Shown here in pieces: positions 1 to 15,939 of a stretch of DNA of 21,045 bases (positions within the stretch are counted from its first letter, which is position 1; the number at the start of each line of letters is the position of its first letter). The notes below the pieces were generated by a model. The model did no database searches and was not told where the DNA came from. It saw nothing but the letters and a program-made list of their open reading frames with translations. Made by a program: the position numbers and the translations under genes. Origin of the DNA: an uncultured bacterium (GTDB taxonomy: Bacteria; Calditrichota; Calditrichia; RBG-13-44-9; J075); the NCBI GenBank assembly GCA_964015645.1, contig CAXHHS010000015.1, forward strand, positions 1 to 21,045. Reading direction: 5' to 3'.

Positions 1-1166
1 ACGAAGCGGCAGCACAAACCTGGGCGTTGCCGCTGCACTTAAAATATTCCGATGGTAATTCGACGCAAACCAAAACGCTGCTTCTAAAAGAAGAATCGAA
101 AAGCATATCCCTGGGAGAAAATGTTAAATGGGTTATGCCGGACGCCGGTACCTACGGCTACTATCGCTGGAATATCCCAGCTGAAATGCTGCTTTTGTTA
201 GCGGAACAGCCGCAAGGCGCCCTTAGCGAGCGCGAGCAGGTAGCGTTCCTGGGAAATGCCACCGCGCTGCTGGACGCTGGTGTTATCAGCGGCGATACTT
301 ACCTCTCTATCCTCAGCGGGTTTGCCCGCTCTCCGGAGCCGGACATTGTTGCGAGTGTGGCTTCCAAACTTCTTAAAATTCGCGACGCCTTTATCCCGGA
401 TGATCTTCGTGATGCCTTTGCCTTCTATATTCGAACAACATTTCGACCGGCGCTAAACCGGGTTGGGCTGGAGAAAAAGGACGGAGAGCCGGCGGTTGTT
501 TCTGCGCTCCGGCCACAGCTAATCGGCTGGCTTGGCGATGAGGGCAATGATCGGGAGATACGTGAATTTGCGAAAACCAAAGCCCGGGAAATTCTGGCTA
601 ATCCCGCTGCGACAGATCCTTCGATGGCCGGTGTAATTTTGCGAATCGCCGCATTGGAAGGCGATGAAACGCTTTTCCAAACCTATAAATCCAATTTCGA
701 AACGGCAAAATCCCCGGTGCTGCGGGGTTTATTCCTGGGAGCGCTCGGTGCATTTTCCGATTCCAAATTACAAGATGCCGCCTTGGCCTATATTTTAGAA
801 GGCCCCTTACATCCGAACGAACTGTTTACGATTCCCCGCCGTATTGCCGATACAGCAGAAGGCCGCGACCGCAATTTTAACTGGTTACTTAAAAATTATG
901 ATGCAATTACTTCTCGCCTGCCTGCGGAGTACGCCGCTTTTATGCCATTCAGCGCCCGTGGTTGCTCTGCAGAACGACTGGAAAAAGCCCGTGAGTTTTT
1001 CTCCAATCCCGCCCACCAGGTACCGGGAACCATGAATACGTTGCAAAAAGTATCTGAATCCGTAATGGATTGTGTAAACCTGCGCCAGCGGGAAGGTACT
1101 GCTGTCGCTGCTTATTTGATAAAGCTAGCTGACAAACAAGAAAATGACACCCAGGGTAGTGAATAA
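1..1166 (+). CDS. M1-family zinc aminopeptidase (aminopeptidase N-like), C-terminal ERAP1-like helical domain only. The 5' part of the gene lies upstream of the window.
   Basis: The reading frame is open from nt 3 with no upstream stop, so the gene is truncated by the window edge. The translated segment (NVKWVMPDAGTYGYYRWNIPAEML...) resembles the all-helical C-terminal domain of PepN/ERAP1-type M1 peptidases. The HEXXH catalytic motif would lie upstream, outside the window. Confidence 0.55.
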   Translation, partial: EAAAQTWALPLHLKYSDGNSTQTKTLLLKEESKSISLGENVKWVMPDAGTYGYYRWNIPAEMLLLLAEQPQGALSEREQVAFLGNATALLDAGVISGDTYLSILSGFARSPEPDIVASVASKLLKIRDAFIPDDLRDAFAFYIRTTFRPALNRVGLEKKDGEPAVVSALRPQLIGWLGDEGNDREIREFAKTKAREILANPAATDPSMAGVILRIAALEGDETLFQTYKSNFETAKSPVLRGLFLGALGAFSDSKLQDAALAYILEGPLHPNELFTIPRRIADTAEGRDRNFNWLLKNYDAITSRLPAEYAAFMPFSARGCSAERLEKAREFFSNPAHQVPGTMNTLQKVSESVMDCVNLRQREGTAVAAYLIKLADKQENDTQGSE

Positions 1167-1379
1167 AAGCTCGGTTGTTCATTTCGGATTATCGATGGCT
1201 TCTCATCATAATAAAATAACCGCTTTTATTCTTATTCCTTGACACAGCTAAAGGATTAGCTTAGCTTGATTAACCTTTTTAGGAATTCCAGCCTGCTCAA
1301 GATTAATCTCTCACCAGTCTAGAATAACTCAAAAGTCAATTAATTTATATTTATATTTTTATTTAAAGGAGTAACAGTA

Positions 1380-1592
1380 ATGTCAGACCGAGTAAACGGA
1401 GTTGTAAAGTGGTTTAACGCCAGTAAAGGTTATGGTTTTATTTCAAACAGTGAAGGTGAAGATCTATTTGTTCATTTTAGCGCTATTCGTGAGGATGGTG
1501 GTTTTCGTTCCCTGGAAGAAGGGCAGAAAGTGGAATTTACGATTGGAGAAGGTGAGAAAGGTCCTCACGCTCAAGATGTAATCACACTGTAG
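1380..1592 (+). CDS. csp: Cold-shock protein, CspA family (single cold-shock domain, 70 aa)
   Basis: [21 protein letters not shown]...DLFVHFSAI: canonical RNP1 (KGYGFI) and RNP2 (VFVHF-like) motifs of the cold-shock domain. Strong RBS AAGGAG 7 nt upstream. A long AT-rich 5' leader (1167-1379) is typical of csp genes. Confidence 0.95.
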
Positions 1593-1703
1593 TTTATAAA
1601 AATATCGGGTAGATCAAAAAGAGAGTAGGTCATGTATGATACCTCTTTTCATTAAAGTTCAAAAACCCAAAAGTTGAGTAAACCAATACCGGTTTAAACA
1701 GAA

Positions 1704-1736
1704 AAGGCGACACTCACTGGTGTCGCCTTTTTTATT
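1704..1736 (+). terminator. Rho-independent terminator downstream of csp
   Basis: GGCGACAC-tcactg-GTGTCGCC: perfect 8-bp GC-rich stem (1706-1713 / 1720-1727) followed by TTTTTTATT. Confidence 0.8.
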
Positions 1737-1766
1737 GGACTCTAAATAATTTGAAAGGGCAACAGA

Positions 1767-2057
1767 ATGAATATTTATATTGGAAATTTATCGCAAGAAG
1801 TTAAAGAGGAAGATTTACGTGAAGCCTTTTCGGCATTCGGAAGAGTGGAATCTGTTAATATAATTAAAGATAAGTTTACTGCCGTATCAAAGGGATTTGG
1901 TTTTGTAGAAATGGAGGCTAAATCGGAAGCTCAAGCAGCAATGAAGGAGTTAGATGGCAGCGAATTAAAAGGAAATAATATTGTTGTAAATGAAGCCCGC
2001 CCACGTTCTGATAAACGGAGAGGTGGAGGAAACAGAGGAGGGGGTGGGCGTTGGTAA
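1767..2057 (+). CDS. RRM-type (RNP-1/RNP-2) RNA-binding protein with a Gly/Arg-rich C-terminal tail
   Basis: MNIYIGNL (RNP-2-like) and KGFGFVEM (RNP-1) motifs. C-terminus RRGGGNRGGGGRW. Typical bacterial Rbp-type glycine-rich RNA-binding protein. Confidence 0.9.
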   Translation: MNIYIGNLSQEVKEEDLREAFSAFGRVESVNIIKDKFTAVSKGFGFVEMEAKSEAQAAMKELDGSELKGNNIVVNEARPRSDKRRGGGNRGGGGRW

Positions 2058-2092
2058 TGATTTTTCCTTATTACCTGTAAAGAGAAAACGCC

Positions 2093-2425
2093 ATGAAAAT
2101 TAAAATTAACGGCATTTGGGCAACTAAGGAGGTATTCCTTGATGGTAAGCTGCTAACCCCCGGGGAAAGCCTTAAAATACATCATCATAGTCAGAGGTTT
2201 TCCTGGGGGAATAAAGGGCCCGCGTCAGAGCAATTGGCATTAGCGATACTTCTTGAGTGCACTCCGAAAGAAATAGCAATTTCTATGTACCAGGATTTTC
2301 AATCGCATATTATAGCGCAGCTTCCGAAGGCGGATTTTAACATCAATTTGAATGTAAATAAGACAGATAACATAGCTGAATTAATGAACGGAAAACTGCC
2401 CAATAATATGGATATCGGGTGGTAA
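2093..2425 (+). CDS. Hypothetical protein (110 aa)
   Basis: Clean ORF with no recognisable motif. Codon usage is consistent with its neighbours. Confidence 0.4.
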   Translation: MKIKINGIWATKEVFLDGKLLTPGESLKIHHHSQRFSWGNKGPASEQLALAILLECTPKEIAISMYQDFQSHIIAQLPKADFNINLNVNKTDNIAELMNGKLPNNMDIGW

Positions 2426-2509
2426 AATTTTATCCATGCCATAATTTACAGCTTTGAAAGTATCTGGATTATCCAAAAAAGTTATATAATGTGAGCCTAA
2501 GTATAAACA

Positions 2510-2776
2510 ATGAATTGGATCAACCGGGTAAAACTATTAAAAAATCGGCTCTTTGATCCAGCTGTAAAAAGATCGGTTGTGATTGAGGCGCTGATTGCTG
2601 AAGAGACAGTAAAAACCATACTGGTAAATTATAAAGATCAAACCGTATGGCTGCAAAAATCGTTAGTAATGTTTAACCAGCATGAAAAAAATAAGGCTAC
2701 TATCACAATTCCTTTCTGGTTATTTGCTCGCAAATTCCCTAAGCTAACCAATAAATCTGTAAAAAATAGTAAGTAA
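2510..2776 (+). CDS. Hypothetical protein (88 aa)
   Basis: ORF only. A TATAAT hexamer sits at 2485-2490 upstream. No recognisable domain. Confidence 0.3.
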   Translation: MNWINRVKLLKNRLFDPAVKRSVVIEALIAEETVKTILVNYKDQTVWLQKSLVMFNQHEKNKATITIPFWLFARKFPKLTNKSVKNSK

Positions 2777-2814
2777 TATATTTCATAGAATATTCTTCTT
2801 TAGAATGAGGAGAA

Positions 2815-3051
2815 GTGATGAAAGAATTCATAGAGCATATTGTTAAACAATTAGTAGATAAACCGGGTGATGTTCAAATAGCGGAAGTAAAAGGCGAACG
2901 TGTAACAGTGTATGAATTACGTGTGGGAACAGGTGATATCGGAAAAGTGATCGGTAAAAGAGGTCAAACGGCAGCCGCTATTCGTTTTCTTTTAAACGCA
3001 GCATCCGCAGCAAAAAATGGAAGGCGCAGCATCCTCGAAATTCTTGAGTAA
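2815..3051 (+). CDS. KH-domain RNA-binding protein (UPF0109 / YlqC-like), paralog 1
   Basis: 78 aa with VIGKRGQTAAAIRFLL: the GXXG loop (GKRG) of a type-II KH domain. Same architecture as the second copy at 9030-9389. RBS GAGGAG upstream. Confidence 0.85.
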   Translation: MMKEFIEHIVKQLVDKPGDVQIAEVKGERVTVYELRVGTGDIGKVIGKRGQTAAAIRFLLNAASAAKNGRRSILEILE

Positions 3052-3082
3052 ACAGGAAAAAATCTTAATGAGGTAAACAAGA

Positions 3083-4564
3083 ATGCCAAAATTAGGACAA
3101 GTCCTAGTTCAAACCCAATCACAAATTTTAAAACCGCAGCAAATTCTTGTTTCCAGCCTGTTGCAGCTCCCAATGTTATTGCTGGAGCAAAAAATACAAA
3201 TGGAGTTACAGCTAAACCCGGTTTTAGAAGAAACAGAAGAATGGGAAGACACACAAGAGGATGAAGAGGAAATAGACGAAGAGGAGACGGAGAAGGAACA
3301 GATTCAGGATGAATTCGAAACGCTGGAAGAAAACAATAAAAGTGAAGAAGACAAATTAAATGATGAGAGCCAGGAAGAAGTGAATCTTGAGGAGCTTTTG
3401 CCTAATGATGATGAAGACTTGCCGGAACCTCGTCTGCCGGTAGATCGTAGTGAAGAAAAACCCGACTTGCCGGAACCCAATCTAGTTACTATGTCAGAAC
3501 ACTTGCTTGATCAATTGCAACTGCTAAATTTACAAGATATAGAATTTCGCATTGGCAAATATATTATTTACAGCTTGCGGGATGATGGTTACCTGGATTT
3601 TGAAATAACCGCAGAATCAATCGCGCAGGTTTTTGAAACCTCTCCGGAAAAAGTAGAGCGAGTTTTAAAGTTCATTCAAAAACTTAACCCTCCCGGCATT
3701 GCCGCCCGAAATTTGCAAGAATGTTTGATTATTCAATTAGAATCCAAACACGAAGATGAGAAACATATTATTCCATTACTTATTCTGAAAGAATGTTACC
3801 AGGATTTTGTTAACCACCATTTTGAAAAAGTCGGCAAACGGCTTGAAATCCCTCTTGATCATGTTAAAGATGCCCTGGCAGTCATTAGTAAGTTAAATCC
3901 AAAGCCCGGTGAAGGTTACTCCGACGCCAAACGAAACTACATTATCCCCGATTTTTATGTGGAAAAAATAGATGATGAACTGGTTATATCTCTCAATGCT
4001 TATAAAACTCCTGGCCTGAGAATCAGCCATTACTACAAAAAGATGATCCGGCAGCCCAAAAAACTGGATTATGAGACCCGAAAATTTTTAAGAGACAAAG
4101 TGAATTCAGCGAAATGGTTTATAACAGCCATTCAACAGCGCCAGGTAACGATGCAGAGAACCATGGAAGCGATCGTCGACAAACAACGAGGTTTTTTTGA
4201 AAATGGCCCGGAGCACATCAAACCGATGATTATGAAAGATATTGCCGAAGAGATCGAAATGGATATTTCCACCATTAGCCGGGTTTGCAAGGGTAAATAT
4301 GTCGATATGGATTATGGTGTATTTGAATTAAAGCATTTTTTTAACGAAGGTATGGAAACCGACAACGGTGAGACATTAAGCACCTTGAGAATTAAAGAAC
4401 ACCTCAAAGAAATTATCGCCACGGAAAATCCTTGCAAACCCTACAGCGATGAAAGGCTCGCTCAAATGTTAAATAAAGAAAGTATACCAATTGCGAGACG
4501 TACCGTCGCAAAATATCGAGAGTTCTTAGATATACCGATTGCTCGATTAAGACGGAATATTTAA
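3083..4564 (+). CDS. rpoN: RNA polymerase sigma-54 factor
   Basis: C-terminal RpoN box [10 protein letters not shown]. Gln/Leu-rich N-terminal region I ([31 protein letters not shown]). A long acidic region II. HTH region [12 protein letters not shown]. Confidence 0.95.
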
Positions 4565-4586
4565 CAATATTTGGAGGTTCAAAATA

Positions 4587-5435
4587 GTGATCAGAAGTTT
4601 TGACAACCGCGCAAACCAATCTTTAGAAAAATACCTTCAAGAAATTGGAGAAGTTCCCCTATTAACCCCGGAAGAAGAAATTAAACTGGCACAGCGAATC
4701 AAACAGGGCGATCAGCAGGCATTGCATAAATTAATCGAGTCGAATCTTCTTTTTGTGGTAAGTGTGGCGAAAGTGTATCAAAACAAAGGACTTTCTTTCG
4801 GAGATTTAATTAATGAAGGCAACCTGGGATTGATGAAGGCTGCAAAGCGGTTCGACGAAACCCGGGGATTCAAATTTATTTCTTATGCCGTTTGGTGGAT
4901 TCGCCAGGGAATTTTGCAGGCGTTGGCGGACCATCCGCGAGTCGTACGCCTCCCACTGAATCGCGTGGGCGCACTTTATAAGATTGGAAAAGCCTACTCT
5001 TCGCTGGAACAAGAGATTGAACGAGAGCCAACCGCCAGCGAAATTGCGGAGCAACTGGATATGAAAGATACTGAAGTAACGGATACCTTGCGAGTTTCCG
5101 GGCGGCATGTATCTGTGGATGCTCCTTTTAGTAGCCGCGAAGATAGCCGTTTGCTTGATGTTATTGAAAATAATCATCAACCACCGCCGGATTCGGAATT
5201 AGTCAATGATTCCTTAAGAGTTGAAATAGAACGTGCGCTCATAACGTTAACAAAGCGCGAAGCAGAGATAGTACGGATGTATTATGGCCTGGGATATGAG
5301 AGTTCCCAGACGTTAGAGGAAATCGGTGATCGCTTTAATTTAACCCGGGAACGGATACGGCAAATTAAAGAGAAAGCGCTTCGGCGATTGCGCCATGCGT
5401 CCCGCAGCAGAGCTTTACGCGCATTTTTAGATTGA
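4587..5435 (+). CDS. Sigma-70 family sigma factor, RpoD/RpoS-like (regions 1.2 to 4.2, 282 aa). GTG start.
   Basis: Region 2 [59 protein letters not shown] closely matches RpoD/RpoS region 2.1-2.4. Region 4.2 [36 protein letters not shown] precedes the GTG. The gene starts 23 nt after the rpoN stop. Confidence 0.85.
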
Positions 5436-10749: not shown

Positions 10750-11931
10750 ATGCACATGGATCCGGTCATGGTGATGCTCACCTCCGCTGTATTGGCCATT
10801 CTAATTGTTGGGTTTCTTATACACCGGTTAAAACAGCCATATATTGTTGCTTATATGATTGTTGGTGTCATTATTGGGCCTCATGGCCTTGCTCTCATCA
10901 GTGATCAATTAGATTTGCATCAAATAGGATCTATTGGTGTTTTGCTGCTATTGTTTTTTATCGGAATGGAAATGTCATTGCCCCGCCTCGTTGCCAATTG
11001 GCGTGTGGCAGTTATCGGAACACTATTACAGATATTAATCAGTGTGGGCATTCTTTGCGGATTGGGATATTGGCTTGATTGGCCCCTGGCGCAAAGCGTG
11101 CTCCTGGGATTTGTGATCAGCTTAAGTAGTACTGCCGTGATTATTAAAATTCTTCAGGAATGGAAGGAAATAGATACCGATGTGGGCAGGGATGTTATCG
11201 GGATTTTATTAATTCAAGACCTCGCTATCGTTCCGATGATGATTTCAATTAATTTTCTCGGTGGGGCTGCTCTCAATATTGCGGGCCTTATTCTACAGAT
11301 TATTGGGGGGCTTGGCATTATTGCATTGCTCGTCTGGGTCATTATTAAAGGAGAGTTCAAAATGCCTTTCGGGCAGTTGCTTCGGAAAGATAACGAACTT
11401 CAGGTATTTTCCGCTTTCATGCTCTGTTTTGGTTTGGCATTCATTACCGGGATATTTAATCTATCAGCAGCGTTAGGGGCATTTGTGGCTGGTATTTTGA
11501 TTTCCGTTGCAAAAGAAACTCACTGGGTGTATGAACGTTTGGAACCTTTTCATGTGGTTTTTGTGGCGTTCTTTTTTGTCAGCATCGGAATGCTAGTTGA
11601 TTTGAATTTCCTACAGGATAATTTGATGCTTGCTTTAAGTTTGGTTGTCATTTCTGTGTTGATCAATACTGCTGTTAATGCAGTTATCATGCGTTTTTTA
11701 GGGGAGAATTGGCGAGATAGTTTATACGGGGGTGCCTTACTTTCCCAGATTGGTGAATTTAGTTTTGTGTTGGCCGGGGTTGGAATTTCCGCGGCAATTA
11801 TTACGGAATTTAGCTATCAAATGACGATTGTCGTTATTTCACTAACACTCTTGCTAAGCCCGCTGTGGATATTATTTATTAAGCGCGTTACCCTAAAGAA
11901 AACAAATCAGGAAGTTTGGATAAATACATAA
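10750..11931 (+). CDS. Monovalent cation:proton antiporter, CPA2 family (Kef/NapA-like membrane domain, no KTN/TrkA domain)
   Basis: 393 aa, about 12 TM helices. The N-terminus LKQPYIVAYMIVGVIIGPHGLALI is typical of the Na_H_Exchanger (CPA2) fold. RBS AAGGGAG. Confidence 0.8.
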   Translation: MHMDPVMVMLTSAVLAILIVGFLIHRLKQPYIVAYMIVGVIIGPHGLALISDQLDLHQIGSIGVLLLLFFIGMEMSLPRLVANWRVAVIGTLLQILISVGILCGLGYWLDWPLAQSVLLGFVISLSSTAVIIKILQEWKEIDTDVGRDVIGILLIQDLAIVPMMISINFLGGAALNIAGLILQIIGGLGIIALLVWVIIKGEFKMPFGQLLRKDNELQVFSAFMLCFGLAFITGIFNLSAALGAFVAGILISVAKETHWVYERLEPFHVVFVAFFFVSIGMLVDLNFLQDNLMLALSLVVISVLINTAVNAVIMRFLGENWRDSLYGGALLSQIGEFSFVLAGVGISAAIITEFSYQMTIVVISLTLLLSPLWILFIKRVTLKKTNQEVWINT

Positions 11932-11955
11932 CATAAAATAAAACAGGATTTCATC

Positions 11956-12846
11956 ATGATCTTCATATTAGCAGTACTCATTAGCATAGCGGCCTTTTTT
12001 GTGTGGCGAAGCGCCGCGGGGAAGGTAAAACAAAACAACGCTGCATTCCAGCCCGTTGGCGTCGGAAGTCTTCTCGCCATGGGCGCGTTCGGAATTCTTG
12101 CGCTGATCCAGTGTTTCACTCAAGTTCCCGCGGGACACGTTGGCGTGGTAGATTTTTTCGGCATCGTGTCTGAGAGGACGCTTCCATCCGGAATCAATTT
12201 GGTGAATCCGCTGGCGCGGGTCATCAAATTCTCCATCCAGACCAAAGAACATAAGGAAACAATGGAAGTGCTCTCACGTGAAGGACTCACCATCGGATTG
12301 GAGATAAGCGCGCTCTACCGGCTCAATCCGGACTCTGCAGCTCGCGTTTACAAAACCGTGGCCGGCGGCGATTACGAAACGATTATTCTCATCCCGCAAT
12401 TCCGCTCTATCAGCCGCGCAGTCACGGCAAGTTTCCAGGCCAGTGCGCTTTATTCAACCGAACGCGACCAGCTTGGCATGGCAATTCAGGAAGAGCTTGC
12501 CAGAATCGTTGCCCCACGCGGCGTAACGATTGAAACGACGCCGCTGCGCAATGTCGCGCTGCCGGTTCAGCTTACCGAAGCGATTGAACAAAAACAGAAA
12601 GCGGATCAGGAAAGCCAGCGGATGGAATTCATCCTGACGAAAGAAAAACAGGAAGCGGACCGGAAACGGATTGAAGCAAAAGGTATCGCTGATTTCCAGA
12701 CGATTGTAGCCGCCGGCATCAGCGAACAATTACTCCGCTGGAAAGGAATCGAAGCCACCGAGAAACTTGCCAGCTCAACAAACACCAAAGTGATCATCGT
12801 CGGCGCGGGAAAAGACGGGCTGCCGATCATTATGGATACGAAATAG
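11956..12846 (+). CDS. SPFH / band-7 (prohibitin/HflC-like) membrane protein
   Basis: N-terminal TM helix, then VPAGHVGVVDFFG...TLPSGINLVNPLARV, a typical SPFH domain. Coiled-coil-rich C-terminus (EAIEQKQKADQESQRMEF...). Confidence 0.85.
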   Translation: MIFILAVLISIAAFFVWRSAAGKVKQNNAAFQPVGVGSLLAMGAFGILALIQCFTQVPAGHVGVVDFFGIVSERTLPSGINLVNPLARVIKFSIQTKEHKETMEVLSREGLTIGLEISALYRLNPDSAARVYKTVAGGDYETIILIPQFRSISRAVTASFQASALYSTERDQLGMAIQEELARIVAPRGVTIETTPLRNVALPVQLTEAIEQKQKADQESQRMEFILTKEKQEADRKRIEAKGIADFQTIVAAGISEQLLRWKGIEATEKLASSTNTKVIIVGAGKDGLPIIMDTK

Positions 12847-12949: not shown

Positions 12950-12987
12950 GGTGCTGAAGTATTTGTTTTACTTCAGCACCGTTATTT
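12950..12987 (+). terminator. Hairpin downstream of the SPFH gene (candidate intrinsic terminator)
   Basis: GGTGCTGAAGT-atttgtttt-ACTTCAGCACC: perfect 11-bp stem followed by gttattt. Confidence 0.5.
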
Positions 12988-13126: not shown

Positions 13127-14221
13127 ATGAAAGCAAAAGCATTCGTATATAGTGAAAATGAATTTGGAAAGATAGATGGTAAGGTTGCAAACGGGCTTGC
13201 CAGGCACTCCGAAAAGTATGATGTCCTTGGTATTATTGATAGCTCAAAGAAAGGTCTTGACGCAGGAGAATATCTTGATGGAATAAAAAATGGAATCCCG
13301 GTATTCGAAAGTATTGATGATGCCATCGAGAACCTGGGTTTTGTTCCGGAATATTTCATTTACGGCATTGCGCCACTCGCTTCATTTCTTGACAAGAAAC
13401 AGAGAGAGATAATCTTCCATGCTATGAAAAAGGGGATGAATATTGTAAACGGGCTACCGGAATTTTTCACCGAGGATAAAGAATTTATGAAAAAGGCGCG
13501 TGAGTATGGCGTCCAAATCTATGATATAAGAAAAGCTCCCCAGAGAAAGGACCTGCATAATTTCTCAGGACGTATCCTTGAAGTCAAAACTCCGGTAATC
13601 ACTGTACTTGGTACAGATTGCGCTGTTGGCAAACGAACAACCGCGGTAAATCTCGTTGACGCCTTGAAACTGGAGGGACTGAACACAGCATTTATAGCAA
13701 CGGGGCAAACTGGAATTCTCCAGGGTTCAAAATATGGTATCGCAGTAGATGTTTTAACTTCTGGTTTTGCAACCGGGGAGGTTGAAAATGCAATTCTACA
13801 AGCCTATGAAAGGGAGCACCCGGACATTATCATCGTCGAAGGACAGGGTGCCCTGAGCCATCCTGCGTTTACCTCCTCAAGTGCAATAATAAGAGGAGCA
13901 ATGCCCAATGCAATTATCCTCCAGCACCCGCCAAATAGAAAAAACCATTGCGATTATCCCAATATACCCATGCCCACACTTGAAAGTGAAATAGAACTAA
14001 TAGAGGTATTCTCTAAATCGAGGGTAATTGCCATCACACTCAACCACGAAGATATGACCGATGATGAACTTGAAGACACAATTGTGGCGTATGAATACAA
14101 ATATGAACTACCGACTACAGACGTCTTAAAAAAAGGATGTGATAAACTAGTTAAAGAGTTATTCACGGTATTTCCGAAACTGCAAAAAACAGTTGCCTTG
14201 CGATGCCAACCCCAAGAATAG
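13127..14221 (+). CDS. DUF1611-family P-loop protein (Rossmann-like N-domain plus Walker-A NTPase-like C-domain)
   Basis: 364 aa. Walker-A-like VLGTDCAVGKRTTAVNL followed by ATGQTG. Overall layout matches DUF1611_N + DUF1611. RBS AAAGAGG. AT-rich coding sequence. Its stop overlaps the next gene's start by 19 nt. Confidence 0.65.
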   Translation: MKAKAFVYSENEFGKIDGKVANGLARHSEKYDVLGIIDSSKKGLDAGEYLDGIKNGIPVFESIDDAIENLGFVPEYFIYGIAPLASFLDKKQREIIFHAMKKGMNIVNGLPEFFTEDKEFMKKAREYGVQIYDIRKAPQRKDLHNFSGRILEVKTPVITVLGTDCAVGKRTTAVNLVDALKLEGLNTAFIATGQTGILQGSKYGIAVDVLTSGFATGEVENAILQAYEREHPDIIIVEGQGALSHPAFTSSSAIIRGAMPNAIILQHPPNRKNHCDYPNIPMPTLESEIELIEVFSKSRVIAITLNHEDMTDDELEDTIVAYEYKYELPTTDVLKKGCDKLVKELFTVFPKLQKTVALRCQPQE

Positions 14222-15939
14222 AGATCGATCTTGAGAAAATTGCGCATAATGCCAAAACGCTAAAGGAACTATATGGCTCAAAGGGCATTGATGTTATCGG
14301 TGTTACAAAAGTGGTTTGCGGAAATCCTGATATCGCTGATGTTTTAGTAAAAAACGGAATAAGCATACTTGCTGATTCAAAGATTGCCAATATCAGAAGG
14401 ATGCGTAACGCAGGTATACAAGCAGAGTTCCTCCTACTGAGAACACCTTTCCTAAGCCAGGCCGAAGCTGTGGTGAAATATGCAGATATTAGTCTGAATT
14501 CAGAAATTTCAGTCGTTAAAAGACTCTCAAAATTTGCCCTAGAGTATAATGCCACACATAAAATAATATTAATGGTGGAGCTGGGGGACTTAAGAGAAGG
14601 GCTAATGCCCTCGGATATAGATAACGCCGTTGAACAGGTAGTAGGGTTGGAAGGAATTAAGCTTGTAGGTTTAGGAACAAATCTAGCCTGTTTTGGAGGG
14701 ATCAAACCTGATGAAGAGAAAATGGGATACTTTTCTTCAATTGCTCGAGCTATTGAAGAAAAGCACGGGCTGACATTAGAATTTGTTTCCGGTGGAAACT
14801 CTGCTAATTATAACTGGTTCATGTCCACTAAGGATGTCGGAAAAATCAATAACCTACGACTTGGTGAATCGATCTATTTGGGATGTGAAACCCTCTATAG
14901 AAAACCCATCCCAGGTCTATTCACAGATGCGTTTACAATGGTGGCAGAAGTTATTGAATCAAAAATAAAGCCATCTTTACCTTGTGGAGATGTTTGTCAA
15001 GATGCATTTGGAAATGTTCCAGAGTTTCAGGACCTTGGCTATGCAAAAAGAGCTATATTGGGAGTTGGATTGCAGGATGTTATGGTTTCCGGCCTGACTC
15101 CCAGGTCGGATATTTACATCCTTGGGGCCAGCAGTGACCATATCATTGTTAACACAAAGAAAATAGAATTAAAAGTAGGAAACGAATTAGAGTTTGATCT
15201 AAATTATGGGGCCTTGCTCTCTGTAATGACATCACCCTATGTAATAAAAAACTCATGTACTTATATGAATGCTCAAGAATATTGCGAAATGGTTGAACAA
15301 AAATACCGCCGTCATAAATTACTTCTTCCAACCGTGGCAATTAAAGAAAACAATTCTCGATTAATTAGTTTAAAAGAATCTGATTTTAATTTAGTATACG
15401 AACCATCAATTAATAAAAACTACAAATATATGGTTAGAGAAGCAGTCTATGAAAAAATAGGACGAATAAGCAAACTTTTAGACATACAAGATAAAAAATT
15501 AATCATTCGATCTGTATGGAGATCTTTTGAACATCAACTGCTTTTATGGGAAAATAGAGTTGATTTTTTACGCAAAGAATTTCCAAATAAACAATTAGAA
15601 GAAATTCAAGAACTCGTTTCATATTTCATTGCCCCGGAAAAAAAATCCATGCACACCACGGGAGGGGCTGTAGATGCTTTAATATATGATTTGAAAAATG
15701 ATTGTGTTATGGATTTTGGAACCAATGACGGGTTAAAAATAGATCTTAATGACAAATGCTACCCATACCATCCTTTTATTTCGCCGCAAGCAAAGAAGAA
15801 CAGAAAATTGCTAATAAATCTATTTGAAAAAGAAGATTTTGTGGTTGATATAAAAGAATACTGGCACTTTGATTACGGTAATGCTTGTTGGGCATTAGAA
15901 AAAGGAAAAGAATACTCAATATATGGCATCACTATGTAA
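14203..15939 (+). CDS. Fusion protein: fold-type-III PLP amino-acid racemase-like domain (alanine/ornithine racemase family, N-terminal ~350 aa) plus VanX/DdpX-like D-Ala-D-Ala dipeptidase domain (M15D, C-terminal ~200 aa)
   Basis: N-terminus IEIDLEKIAHNAKTLKEL...GVTKVVCGNPDIADVL (candidate PLP-Lys in GVTK) and ...VELGDLREG...GLGTNLACFGG resemble the alanine-racemase N-terminal TIM barrel. C-terminus RSVWRSFEHQ, SMHTTGGAVD (SxHxxGxAxD zinc site) and EYWHFDY (ExxH) match the VanX signature motifs. Single uninterrupted ORF. Confidence 0.75.
   Translation: MPTPRIEIDLEKIAHNAKTLKELYGSKGIDVIGVTKVVCGNPDIADVLVKNGISILADSKIANIRRMRNAGIQAEFLLLRTPFLSQAEAVVKYADISLNSEISVVKRLSKFALEYNATHKIILMVELGDLREGLMPSDIDNAVEQVVGLEGIKLVGLGTNLACFGGIKPDEEKMGYFSSIARAIEEKHGLTLEFVSGGNSANYNWFMSTKDVGKINNLRLGESIYLGCETLYRKPIPGLFTDAFTMVAEVIESKIKPSLPCGDVCQDAFGNVPEFQDLGYAKRAILGVGLQDVMVSGLTPRSDIYILGASSDHIIVNTKKIELKVGNELEFDLNYGALLSVMTSPYVIKNSCTYMNAQEYCEMVEQKYRRHKLLLPTVAIKENNSRLISLKESDFNLVYEPSINKNYKYMVREAVYEKIGRISKLLDIQDKKLIIRSVWRSFEHQLLLWENRVDFLRKEFPNKQLEEIQELVSYFIAPEKKSMHTTGGAVDALIYDLKNDCVMDFGTNDGLKIDLNDKCYPYHPFISPQAKKNRKLLINLFEKEDFVVDIKEYWHFDYGNACWALEKGKEYSIYGITM

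Follow-up and report, generated by a model that had tools for sequence, protein, structure and literature searches.

A widespread DUF1611–racemase gene cassette with an ornithine-racemase-type enzyme as a candidate D-amino-acid processing unit

The stretch of DNA analysed here (the window, 21,045 nt) carries a pair of overlapping genes that most likely make and process a D-amino acid, probably not D-alanine. The conserved core of this cassette is a DUF1611-family gene followed by a racemase gene of the ornithine-racemase (OrnR) type, while the fusion of the racemase to an M15 peptidase, as seen in the window, is one of several exchangeable forms of a three-gene unit. The cassette is a variation on the DgcN/DgcA theme and is widespread in bacteria and archaea. 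Taken as a whole, it is best explained as a horizontally mobile, self-contained D-amino-acid cassette that would racemise, N-acylate and hydrolyse its substrate, a reading of the sequence to which we assign a probability of about 0.5.

Organization of the gene pair

The pair consists of ORF1 (gene 1) and ORF2 (gene 2; 14203..15939, plus strand, 578 aa), the latter encoding a PLP racemase joined to an M15 peptidase, with the following features:

12950..12980, plus strand: terminator-like hairpin with a 12-bp stem, a 7-nt loop and a T-rich tail; delimits the cassette on its 5' side
13127..14221, plus strand: ORF1, 364 aa, DUF1611/DgcN-family protein with an N-terminal Rossmann-like domain and a C-terminal P-loop domain
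13610..13642, plus strand: Walker A/P-loop GTDCAVGKRTT, ORF1 residues 162–172, common to 2g0t, 2obn and 7xrj in the alignments
14203..14221, plus strand: ORF1/ORF2 overlap of 19 nt, with the ATG at 14203 and the TAG at 14219–14221
14203..15252, plus strand: racemase domain, ORF2 residues 1–350, OrnR-type fold-III PLP enzyme
15246..15264, plus strand: junction, an A6 run (15246–15251) followed by a four-residue linker (S351–Y354)
15265..15939, plus strand: M15 (VanX-like) zinc peptidase domain, ORF2 residues 355–578

The gene coordinates and the 19-nt overlap given in an earlier note on this DNA were recovered unchanged, the overlap implying, as proposed there, that the two genes are translationally coupled; overlaps of -19, -4 or -7 nt were seen again in most related loci. 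A Shine-Dalgarno-like AAAGAGG lies 6 nt upstream of the ORF1 ATG. Of the hairpins said to bracket the pair, the upstream one is real and probably terminates the preceding SPFH gene (11956–12846), but the 231-bp gap downstream of ORF2 had no terminator-like site.

The GC content is 41.9% in ORF1 and 36.5% in ORF2 (GC3 30.4%), with the lowest values of the window in the M15 part (GC 31.0%, GC3 24.3%), against a window mean of 43.4% and 48–53% in the flanking genes. The module is AT-richer than its flanks, as had been noticed earlier, but not unique in this respect: the first 4.8 kb of the window (1–4.8 kb) are similarly AT-rich (~38% GC), and the tetranucleotide distance of the module (0.228) does not stand out from that of other 2.8-kb segments (0.156–0.256).

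The DUF1611 protein

ORF1 matched the Pfam families DUF1611 (E 1.5e-67) and DUF1611_N (E 6e-21) and the PDB entries 2g0t (E 9e-50), 2obn and 7xrj (E 1e-25), the last of which we take to be the DgcN structure; these matches and alignments agree with the DUF1611 layout, the Walker A motif and the link to DgcN recognised previously. The DUF1611_N plus DUF1611 architecture with the P-loop and the GQTG and EGQG motifs is present, and 7xrj also has the P-loop, ATGQTGIL and EGQGxLxHP motifs, while the score with the NCBIfam DgcN model NF041892 (162.5 bits) stays below the equivalog cut-off of 480. DgcN is the one characterised member of DUF1611. It reportedly N-acetylates D-glutamate with acetyl-CoA, the acetylation coming first and the racemisation of the N-acetyl amino acid second. 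This D-glutamate catabolic module, DgcN/DgcA, was described by Yu et al. 2023, ISME J 17:537 (as cited in PMC12363236).

The cassette resembles DgcN/DgcA in that a DUF1611-family gene immediately precedes an amino-acid racemase gene and is coupled to it, as well as in its marine or saline habitat bias. However, DgcA is an enolase-superfamily racemase acting on an N-acetyl amino acid, whereas the partner coupled to ORF1 is a PLP fold-III enzyme of the OrnR type that requires a free alpha-amine, so that the order of steps in the cassette cannot be the acetylate-then-racemise order of DgcN/DgcA. The cassette also differs in its substrate, which is probably not D-Glu, and in its additional M15 hydrolase. 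Enolase-type (MR_MLE) racemases coupled to DUF1611 were found only in other DUF1611 loci, those of Methanocaldococcus and Halorussus. Since DUF1611 is thus coupled to either PLP or enolase-type racemases, its partners appear to have amino-acid racemisation in common, albeit not without exception, because in the case of TM0796, whose structure is the closest solved one for DUF1611, the coupled gene encodes a ComB-like phosphatase and not a racemase.

The racemase domain

Pfam Ala_racemase_N matched residues 8–226 of ORF2 (E 5e-26). With the NCBIfam model Orr (NF040742, racem_Orr) the racemase domain scored 401 bits over model positions 2–350 of 351, against only 38 bits with the alr model. The Orr cut-off of 480 was missed, as it also was by two homologues, the Ord-fused P0133 (420) and the arginase-fused P0144 (439), which indicates a cut-off stricter than the function. 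The residues defining OrnR are Lys36, Arg129, Asn161, Cys164, Arg220 and Tyr349, with Cys164 in place of the acid/base Tyr265 of AlaR and Asn161 in place of its pi-stacking His (PMC13397332). All six are matched in ORF2, by K36 (nt 14308–14310), R131, N160, the catalytic C163 (nt 14689–14691), R219 and Y346. The PLP-binding positions K36, R131 and R219 are invariant, and ORF2 shares the conserved segment GTN160-L-A-C163-F with every cassette racemase and with the OrnRs fused to arginase or Ord. In the AF2 model the barrel spans residues 10–240 with a pLDDT mostly of 70–95. The fold-type-III PLP barrel with its GVTK lysine, proposed in the earlier note, therefore stands, but not the alanine-racemase role: judged by its residues, the enzyme is predicted to be an ornithine-racemase-type (Cys/Lys) and not an alanine racemase.

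The identity of the domain to the arginase- and Ord-fused OrnRs is 41–50%. Among the best 150 representatives at 50% identity, approximately 23 are fused to arginase-family domains (P0144 passing the arginase equivalog cut-off), P0133 carries a fused 2,4-diaminopentanoate dehydrogenase and passes the Ord cut-off, and P0251 is a racemase fused to a Ddl-like ligase. In comparison with the named OrnRs, Orr of Acetoanaerobium sticklandii and OrnR STM2358 of Salmonella (PMC13397332), the classical motif is GGNSS(S/A)LP, while the cassette racemases form a separate clade with GGNSANY (GGNSANYN in ORF2). The genomic context is different as well, being ornithine fermentation or a D-ornithine/D-lysine decarboxylase operon in case of OrnR and DUF1611, Ddl-like and M15 genes in case of the cassette; none of the 84 related loci surveyed contained the fermentation genes ord, oraSE or ortAB or genes of the D-Orn/D-Lys decarboxylase operon. 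Both the sub-cut-off Orr score and the divergent clade motif suggest that the substrate may not be ornithine itself.

The M15 domain and the fusion

The C-terminal part of ORF2 matched Pfam Peptidase_M15 (PF01427) at residues 410–562 with 34.4 bits (cut-off 27). From the list of Pfam families expected previously, DUF1611_N/DUF1611 and Ala_racemase_N were matched, but Peptidase_M15_4 was absent, with PF01427, the VanX family, found instead. The key residues R436/R440, H484, D491, E552 and H555 are invariant in homologues, H484 and D491 being supplied by SMHTTGGAVD and E552 and H555 by EYWH; these two motifs, the Walker A GTDCAVGKRTT and GVTK (K36) are invariant in 19 homologues. In a profile search against VanX (1r44), which was the best PDB match, KSMH..D paired with KSSH..D and EYWH with EWWH. 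The four residues H484, D491, E552 and H555, presumably equivalent to H116, D123, E181 and H184 in VanX numbering, bear out the earlier claim of a complete VanX-type zinc site. Like VanX/DdpX (MEROPS M15), the domain belongs to PF01427 and has H-D-H zinc ligands, a catalytic Glu and the conserved Arg, but it is very distant from both, scoring 26.3 bits with the VanX equivalog model (cut-off 320) and 35.6 bits with DdpX (cut-off 176), and its context is a fused or coupled racemase, with no van or ddp genes.

The full VanX catalytic set and the best PDB match would suit a salvage of D-Ala-D-Ala, in which the M15 domain cleaves the peptidoglycan-derived dipeptide, the racemase converts D-Ala to L-Ala and the DUF1611 protein N-acetylates the surplus. 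The order of the fusion fits a hydrolase-to-racemase sequence, the other partner of the racemase is Ddl-like (Ddl being classically a D-Ala enzyme), and GGNSANY resembles the ANSAA motif carried by alanine racemases. With a catalytic Cys, no reliance on the AlaR Tyr and an Asn for the stacking His, however, D-Ala release followed by racemisation is not the default reading of this enzyme. The Orr and alr scores, the large distance of the M15 domain from VanX and DdpX, the lack of a conserved peptide transporter nearby and the archaeal loci that have the core pair without M15 all count against it. The proposal of the earlier note that D-Ala is freed from D-Ala-D-Ala and then racemised or modified is at odds with the OrnR-type racemase and with these M15-less loci, and we consider such salvage unlikely.

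The M15 domain begins at M355, the equivalent of the initiator Met where M15 is a gene of its own, and a 1-nt indel in the A-run of the junction separates the fused from the split (ATGA-overlap) loci. The window has the fused form through loss of the stop codon at the A-run. A single-base homopolymer indel could likewise be an assembly error joining two genes, and the closest genome relative (L035, 85% identity) has the split form. Nevertheless, an artefact is very unlikely, since more than 120 independent protein clusters (at least 70% identity) share the ~579-aa fused architecture, including those of cultured Aquimarina and Psychroserpens, and the suspicion that ORF2 is really two genes has thus not been borne out. 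The function would be the same either way, the split genes being coupled via the ATGA overlap. A racemase::M15 fusion usually unites consecutive steps, which would favor a catabolic order from hydrolase to racemase and sits uneasily with the function proposed below.

Distribution of the cassette

The gene neighbourhood survey covered 84 related genome loci and a further 76 metagenome loci with a Ddl-like ligase. DUF1611 was located directly 5' of the racemase in 79 of the 84 genome loci, while the M15 gene was fused in 31, separate and abutting in 25, divergent in two and absent in 23. The fusion is widespread, not an uncommon arrangement. The DUF1611-racemase pair was present in Bacteroidota, Ignavibacteria, Marinimicrobia, Calditrichia, Acidobacteriota, Bacillaceae, Methanomicrobia, Bathyarchaeia and Thermoplasmatota, with a racemase identity between Bacteria and Archaea of up to 79–81%; cultured carriers belonged to Aquimarina, Tenacibaculum, Psychroserpens, Virgibacillus and Gracilibacillus. 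The core without any M15 gene was found in archaea, which to our knowledge lack murein, and in halophilic Bacillaceae, which excludes D-Ala-D-Ala processing as the function of the core.

No transporter or other metabolic gene recurred in the flanks of the related loci, and the lack of a recurrent transporter fits an intracellular substrate. An AraC-type regulator recurred upstream in 31 loci. Various hydrolases occurred next to the pair, such as Amidohydro_3 in the downstream M15 position (L066) and, immediately upstream, M23 (L037) and DUF5700 (L045) peptidases. A locus without DUF1611 (L056) had Amidohydro_3 and a DcuC-type (DcuC/AbgT-like) carrier upstream of the racemase; this combination of hydrolase, transporter and racemase looks catabolic and does not match the proposed function.

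These neighbours, together with the racemase::M15 fusion, the upstream regulator of a type typical for catabolic operons and the catabolic precedent of DgcN/DgcA, would be expected if M15 or Amidohydro_3 freed a D-amino acid, the racemase turned it into the L-form and the DUF1611 protein N-acetylated the excess. The yeast D-amino-acid N-acetyltransferase is a comparable case of detoxification. On the other hand, DUF1611 and the racemase make the most conserved and the tightest pair, 23 loci have no hydrolase, a conserved transporter is absent, and the replacement by a Ddl-like enzyme (see below) implies a racemase working from L to D and feeding a ligase that consumes the D-amino acid. A purely catabolic or detoxifying role is hence doubtful, although a serious possibility.

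Databases name the fused protein only 'alanine racemase' or 'predicted amino acid racemase/D-alanyl-D-alanine dipeptidase', and literature searches found no published characterisation of the cassette. The earlier view that the combination is not a described pathway holds; it is widespread, but not as a known pathway.

The Ddl-like sister cassette

A Ddl-like ATP-grasp ligase occupied the slot of DUF1611 in 3 of the 84 genome loci, and in 64 of the 76 metagenome loci with such a ligase a racemase of the same GGNSANY subclade begins 13 nt later. Four of the Ddl-linked racemases nest within the DUF1611-linked clade. The ligase scored ~138 bits, below the Ddl cut-off of 243. The sister cassette resembles alr-ddl in the succession of a Ddl-like ATP-grasp gene and a racemase gene, but its racemase is OrnR-type, its ligase is under the Ddl cut-offs, and archaeal and sediment metagenomes, in which one would not expect murein to be made, commonly contain it. 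The replacement of DUF1611 by a ligase points to a D-amino acid that would be consumed after the racemase, rather than simply catabolised. Both the M15 and the Ddl-like families are classically D-Ala enzymes, which is a point against the function proposed here.

Racemase, M15 and ligase resemble VanT (fold-III racemase), VanX/XY (M15) and VanC (Ddl-like), respectively, and might be taken for a vanC-like system of cell-wall remodelling or glycopeptide resistance. Yet the three never occur together (no M15 gene in 80 Ddl-type cassettes, and the ligase likewise missing from the DUF1611-type), neither VanRS nor VanH genes were present and no two-component system was conserved in the loci, every van-family model remained far under its cut-off, and the cassette is found in archaea, which makes this reading extremely improbable.

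Proposed function

In the preferred reading, a D-amino-acid cassette, the racemase would first turn an intracellular L-amino acid into its D-form. Since the racemase falls into a distinct 'GGNSANY' subclade within the ornithine racemases, its substrate is most probably L-ornithine or a basic amino acid closely resembling it. By analogy with DgcN acting on D-glutamate and acetyl-CoA, the DUF1611 protein would then trap the D-enantiomer by N-acylation, rendering the conversion irreversible; in the parallel cassette the Ddl-like ATP-grasp enzyme would ligate the D-amino acid as an equivalent of this step. Finally, the M15 domain would hydrolyse the amide bond N-terminal to the D-residue, either releasing the free D-amino acid from its N-acyl form for return to the L-pool by the fused racemase, or supplying the D-amino acid from a D-dipeptide. 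The substrate, the acyl donor and the direction of the reactions are all as we infer them. An objection to this scheme is that, without regulation, DUF1611 and M15 from one operon would make and break the same amide in a futile cycle.

A more specific and quite speculative version would see the core and its Ddl-like sister as a biosynthetic module of Bacteria and Archaea, converting L-ornithine or a related diamino acid to a D-configured N-acylated molecule or a D-dipeptide. The product might be, for example, an N-acetyl-D-ornithine-type compatible solute or nitrogen store, with the M15 domain as a dedicated hydrolase mobilising it. A parallel is AblA/AblB, a lysine 2,3-aminomutase and a beta-lysine acetyltransferase producing the osmolyte N-epsilon-acetyl-beta-lysine. 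The likeness is an analogy only and lies in the two-gene logic of a basic-amino-acid isomerase plus an N-acyltransferase, in the occurrence in methanogens and salt-adapted bacteria and in the autonomy without a transporter; the protein families are unrelated, and an osmolyte as the cassette product is by analogy only. We know of no biosynthetic genes for the N-acetylated diamino-acid osmolytes of aerobic halophilic Firmicutes. Such osmolytes have been reported in this group (PMC2329653), and their genetic basis would be provided by the cassette if the biosynthetic version were true.

Significance

The cassette is a second widespread context of DUF1611, in which the chemistry of the racemase (PLP, free amine) is mechanistically incompatible with the enolase-type N-acyl route. 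Where metagenomic surveys take 'dgcN' of Bacteroidia and Marinisomatia for D-glutamate catabolism (PMC12363236), some of the matches may be the DUF1611-racemase cassette instead. With a DUF1611 slot that is exchangeable with a Ddl-like ligase, the cassette represents an uncharacterised D-amino-acid pathway spanning Bacteria and Archaea, and its presence in the cultured genera listed above makes this pathway directly testable.

The two-gene module

The module consists of a DUF1611 gene (ORF1) and, overlapping it by 19 nt on the same strand, a gene for a racemase fused to a VanX-like M15 domain (ORF2), whose ATG at 14203 precedes the TAG of ORF1 at 14219-14221.

13127-14221, + strand: ORF1, 364 aa, DUF1611_N and DUF1611 (Pfam, E 6e-21 and 1.5e-67)
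14203-15939, + strand: ORF2, 578 aa, racemase::M15 fusion (Pfam)

In ORF2, Ala_racemase_N covered aa 8-226 (Pfam, E 5e-26) and Peptidase_M15 aa 410-562 (34.4 bits vs a gathering score of 27). The earlier note had proposed just such an overlapping pair, and the coordinates, the overlap and the Pfam assignments agreed with it; the motifs it pointed to (here Walker A GTDCAVGKRTT, GVTK, SMHTTGGAVD and EYWH) were all found and were invariant in 19 homologues of 70-82% identity. AlphaFold2 modelling of the fusion from a shallow 19-sequence alignment gave a mean pLDDT of 60, with the TIM barrel alone confident and the beta-domain and M15 part below 50, and a PDB sequence search with the whole fusion returned weak matches to alanine and serine racemases only; the domain reading of the fusion rests on profile and sequence evidence.

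The module had also been described as AT-rich and bracketed by hairpins. A terminator-like structure was present at 12950-12980, 3' of the upstream SPFH gene, but a search downstream of ORF2 found no such site. Similarly, the module was AT-richer than its adjoining flanks (ORF2 with 36.5% GC and 30.4% GC3, its M15 part with the window minimum of 24.3% GC3), but the 1-4.8 kb part of the window was about as AT-rich, and the tetranucleotide distance of the module was unremarkable. With about 38% GC and tetranucleotide distances reaching 0.256, the stretch at 1000-4800, which contains an ORF at 3083-4564, deviated in composition as much as the cassette.

Affiliation of the racemase

The racemase part of ORF2 matched the NCBIfam ornithine racemase model (Orr) over positions 2-350 of 351 with 401 bits, under the cut-off of 480, and the NCBIfam alanine racemase model with 38 bits. 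Ornithine racemases are without the catalytic Tyr of alanine racemase and use Cys164 in its role; all 945 members of the family have this Cys, and the C164A mutant is inactive. Asn161 replaces the PLP-stacking His, and Lys36, Arg129, Arg220 and Tyr349 have also been named (Phillips et al., PMC13397332). The window racemase, like all the cassette racemases, has K36, R131, N160, C163, R219 and Y346, matching the Cys, the Asn and the other named residues.

Fusion partners among the best 150 racemase representatives (50% identity clusters, P-numbers) tie the family to ornithine by the Rosetta-stone principle: about 23 were fused to arginase-family domains (P0137, P0140, P0141, P0144 and P0151 among them), the one in P0144 exceeding its equivalog cut-off (233 vs 227.6); P0133 was fused to 2,4-diaminopentanoate dehydrogenase (Ord, 510 vs a cut-off of 400); and one representative was fused to a Ddl-like domain. 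The arginase-family fusions would imply a direct channel from L-Arg through L-Orn to D-Orn. Since P0133 and P0144 also scored below the Orr cut-off (420 and 439, respectively), missing it is no argument against an ornithine racemase function. The ornithine racemases linked to Ord or arginase carry GGNSS(S/A)LP, whereas the cassette racemases form their own clade with GGNSANY, so that their substrate could be a relative of ornithine; we lean towards ornithine or a basic amino acid as the substrate. RacX of the Flavobacteriales, considered as well, is PLP-independent and irrelevant to the cassette racemase.

The DUF1611 partner

ORF1 shares the P-loop GTDCxVGK, ATGQTGIL and EGQGxLxHP with the structures 2g0t, 2obn and 7xrj, the last of which we take to be DgcN, and scored 162 on the DgcN equivalog, far under the cut-off of 480. 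Yu et al. (2023), a study cited in PMC12363236, reportedly found that DgcN N-acetylates D-glutamate and that the enolase-superfamily racemase DgcA then inverts N-acetyl-D-Glu. In contrast to DgcA, with its N-acetyl substrate, the cassette racemase is a PLP enzyme that needs a free alpha-amine, which excludes the DgcN/DgcA order of acylation followed by racemization unless a side-chain amine is acylated. Coupling of DUF1611 to enolase-superfamily (MR_MLE) racemases was seen in Methanocaldococcus and in Halorussus, the latter with an NlpC/P60 peptidase upstream; DUF1611 thus partners with racemases of two unrelated superfamilies, PLP and MR_MLE.

The nearest solved DUF1611 protein, TM0796 (2g0t) of Thermotoga maritima (locus L165, 5001-6694), was ruled out as a member of the same cassette, being translationally coupled not to a racemase but to a 2-phosphosulfolactate-phosphatase-like gene of the ComB family. 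This coupling is a third genomic context of the DUF1611 family.

Distribution and neighbourhood of the core pair

Scanning of one genome per species gave 562 relatives, the best 80 of which were analysed together with 4 metagenome loci (L-numbers). DUF1611 stood immediately 5' of the racemase in 79 of these 84 loci, as a rule with an overlap of 4-19 nt. The core pair was present without M15 in halophilic or halotolerant Bacillaceae (such as Virgibacillus, Gracilibacillus, Thalassobacillus, Aquibacillus, Alkalihalobacillus) and also occurred in Archaea (Methanomicrobia, Bathyarchaeia, Thermoplasmatota), whose cassette racemases reached 79% identity to that of the window. This identity across domains, with flanks unrelated from locus to locus, indicates a horizontally mobile, self-contained cassette. 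The single Aquimarina locus without DUF1611 (L033, Aquimarina rubra) had an AbiEii-type toxin-antitoxin pair at 3749-4871, 5' of the fused racemase::M15 gene, which suggests loss of DUF1611 through insertion or replacement.

Pfam analysis of 105 upstream and 106 downstream proteins, taken from either side of some 66 dereplicated loci, gave only two recurrent neighbours, a short AraC-family regulator (17/105 upstream) and a small cupin, found by BLAST clustering in 31 and 25 loci, respectively; neither is in the window. No conserved transporter or further metabolic enzyme was found in either flank of these loci, which fits an intracellular substrate. Upstream neighbours included two proteins with the archaeal tRNA-Thr_ED domain, presumably DTD2-like (D-aminoacyl-tRNA deacylase), two with amino-acid permease domains and one class-III aminotransferase; in particular lineages, these may connect the cassette with the handling of D-amino acids. 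In the window, genes for a Na+/H+ exchanger and an SPFH/Band-7 protein (10750-12846) are found just 5' of the cassette, a cation/proton antiporter adjoins it upstream in Virgibacillus (L077 and L081, about 2720-4590), and SPFH genes are close to it in 12 Flavobacteriaceae loci (cluster 5). These neighbours hint at an osmotic-stress link without statistical support: Band_7 was found in 3/106 downstream neighbours, and no antiporter family was among the 25 commonest families on either side.

Fused and split forms of the M15 component

State of M15 in the 84 loci (best 80 of 562 relatives plus 4 metagenome loci)
Fused: 31/84; cultured Aquimarina, Psychroserpens
Separate gene, abutting or overlapping (about 352 + 225 aa): 25/84; cultured Tenacibaculum, Croceitalea, Ascidiimonas; L035
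Separate gene, divergently transcribed: 2/84; Acidobacteriota (L053, L055)
Absent: 23/84; Archaea, Bacillaceae
Undeterminable (contig end): 3/84

The racemase::M15 architecture of about 579 aa was found in more than 120 protein clusters (70% identity or higher) from Bacteroidota, Marinimicrobia, Desulfobacterales and other metagenome-assembled genomes, with the database names 'alanine racemase' or 'predicted amino acid racemase/D-alanyl-D-alanine dipeptidase'. The closest relative (L035, 85% identity) was split. In the window fusion, the first residue of the M15 part (M355), preceded by a four-residue linker (SCTY), matched the start Met of the separate M15 genes, and DNA alignment showed that a single-nucleotide indel, in a run of A immediately 5' of the M15 ATG, separates the fused from the split forms, the latter with an ATGA stop/start overlap or, in Tenacibaculum, an in-frame TAA and then ATG. 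The indel junctions were located at 15246-15264 in the window and in L035, L044 and L038.

Such an indel may reflect evolutionary toggling, slippage or an assembly error in long-read metagenome-assembled genomes. The architecture is therefore no rare invention: the fusion is real and represents one state of a labile junction in a three-gene operon that toggles recurrently. The one-indel difference and the split state of L035 would suit a sequencing or assembly artefact, but this reading was rejected as very improbable because the fused ORF recurs in so many independent clusters, those of cultured Aquimarina and Psychroserpens among them; the function would in any case stay the same, the split genes being coupled by the ATGA overlap. 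In a Cyclobacteriaceae locus (L071, 5779-6903), a second DUF1611 paralogue of 60% identity lay directly 3' of the M15 gene.

The M15 domain and alternative hydrolases

Profile comparison of the M15 domain with VanX (1r44, E 0.003) aligned KSMH..D with KSSH..D and EYWH with EWWH, and its RSxWRS..HQ motif resembled the VanY-type SGFRSYxxQ; however, it scored far under both the VanX and the DdpX equivalogs. D-Ala-D-Ala salvage, proposed in the earlier note, would suit the VanX-like zinc motifs, but beside these scores and the ornithine racemase residues of the partner domain it is unlikely. A van-like remodelling or resistance module was rejected as extremely unlikely: no cassette combined the Ddl-like ligase with M15, VanRS and VanH genes were absent, archaea carry the cassette too, and the scores on all van-family models fell far under the cut-offs.

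Other hydrolases also adjoined the pair: an Amidohydro_3 enzyme coupled downstream in L066 (best NCBIfam match PRK09061, which we take to be D-glutamate deacylase), and another together with a DcuC/AbgT-like carrier in L056; L037 carried an M23 peptidase and L045 a DUF5700 zinc peptidase. The third slot is therefore one for an amidase or peptidase, plausibly a D-specific one.

Replacement of DUF1611 by a Ddl-like ligase

In three loci without DUF1611 (two Heimdallarchaeota, one Pseudomonadota), the gene coupled 5' of the racemase encoded a Ddl-like ATP-grasp protein (Pfam Dala_Dala_lig_C, E about 1e-27; Ddl subfamily model, about 138 bits vs a cut-off of 243). This protein as a metagenome query gave at least 218 relatives. 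Seventy-six of the metagenome loci extended far enough downstream, and in 64 of them the Ddl-like gene was followed after 13 nt by a racemase of the GGNSANY type; neither DUF1611 nor M15 was found in the metagenome loci of this type. Ordered by neighbour joining, the majority of the Ddl-linked racemases are placed in a clade that is sister to the DUF1611-linked ones, while four, with 64-81% identity to the window, nest within the latter, implying partner swaps. The Ddl-like gene and the OrnR-type racemase constitute an abundant separate two-gene cassette (L085-L164 from metagenomes; L040, L047, L068), found in sediment metagenomes and Heimdallarchaeota genomes. Its archaeal hosts are not expected to synthesize murein.

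Ddl-family enzymes consume D-amino acids, and of the arguments at hand this one speaks most strongly for a racemase that works from L to D and for a DUF1611 protein that likewise consumes the D-product. A purely catabolic or detoxifying module, set beside this argument, has a minor chance of being correct.

Proposed function

The best supported model, with a probability of about 0.5, is racemization, acylation by DUF1611 and hydrolysis by M15. The racemase would convert L-X, where X is probably ornithine, to D-X; DUF1611 would N-acylate D-X and pull the equilibrium forward; M15 would cleave a D-specific amide, whereby the product is recycled or a D-dipeptide serves as a source of D-X; and the fused racemase would return D-X to the L-pool. 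The analysis shows to which families the components belong, that their catalytic residues are intact, that the genes are coupled, how often they occur together and that one partner can replace another, whereas the substrate, the acyl donor, the direction and the role of M15 are inferred.

By analogy with AblAB, the route might lead to an N-acyl-D-diamino-acid solute, which we regard as quite improbable. N-delta-acetylornithine and N-epsilon-acetyl-alpha-lysine are known solely from aerobic Firmicutes (Oren review, PMC2329653), a group that includes the halophilic Bacillaceae with the core pair.

The family of every component and the theme of DUF1611 plus a racemase were already known; the cassette is set apart by a PLP racemase as the partner, by the added M15 component, by the exchange of DUF1611 for a Ddl-like ligase and by its spread across domains. 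The searchable literature yielded neither a characterization of the DUF1611-OrnR cassette nor a work joining ornithine racemase with D-alanyl-D-alanine dipeptidase. In a Mariana Trench survey, the major 'dgcN' carriers were Bacteroidia, Rhodothermia and Marinisomatia (PMC12363236). These taxa overlap with the carriers of the cassette, and part of the reported 'dgcN' counts may therefore be mis-assigned DUF1611-OrnR cassettes.
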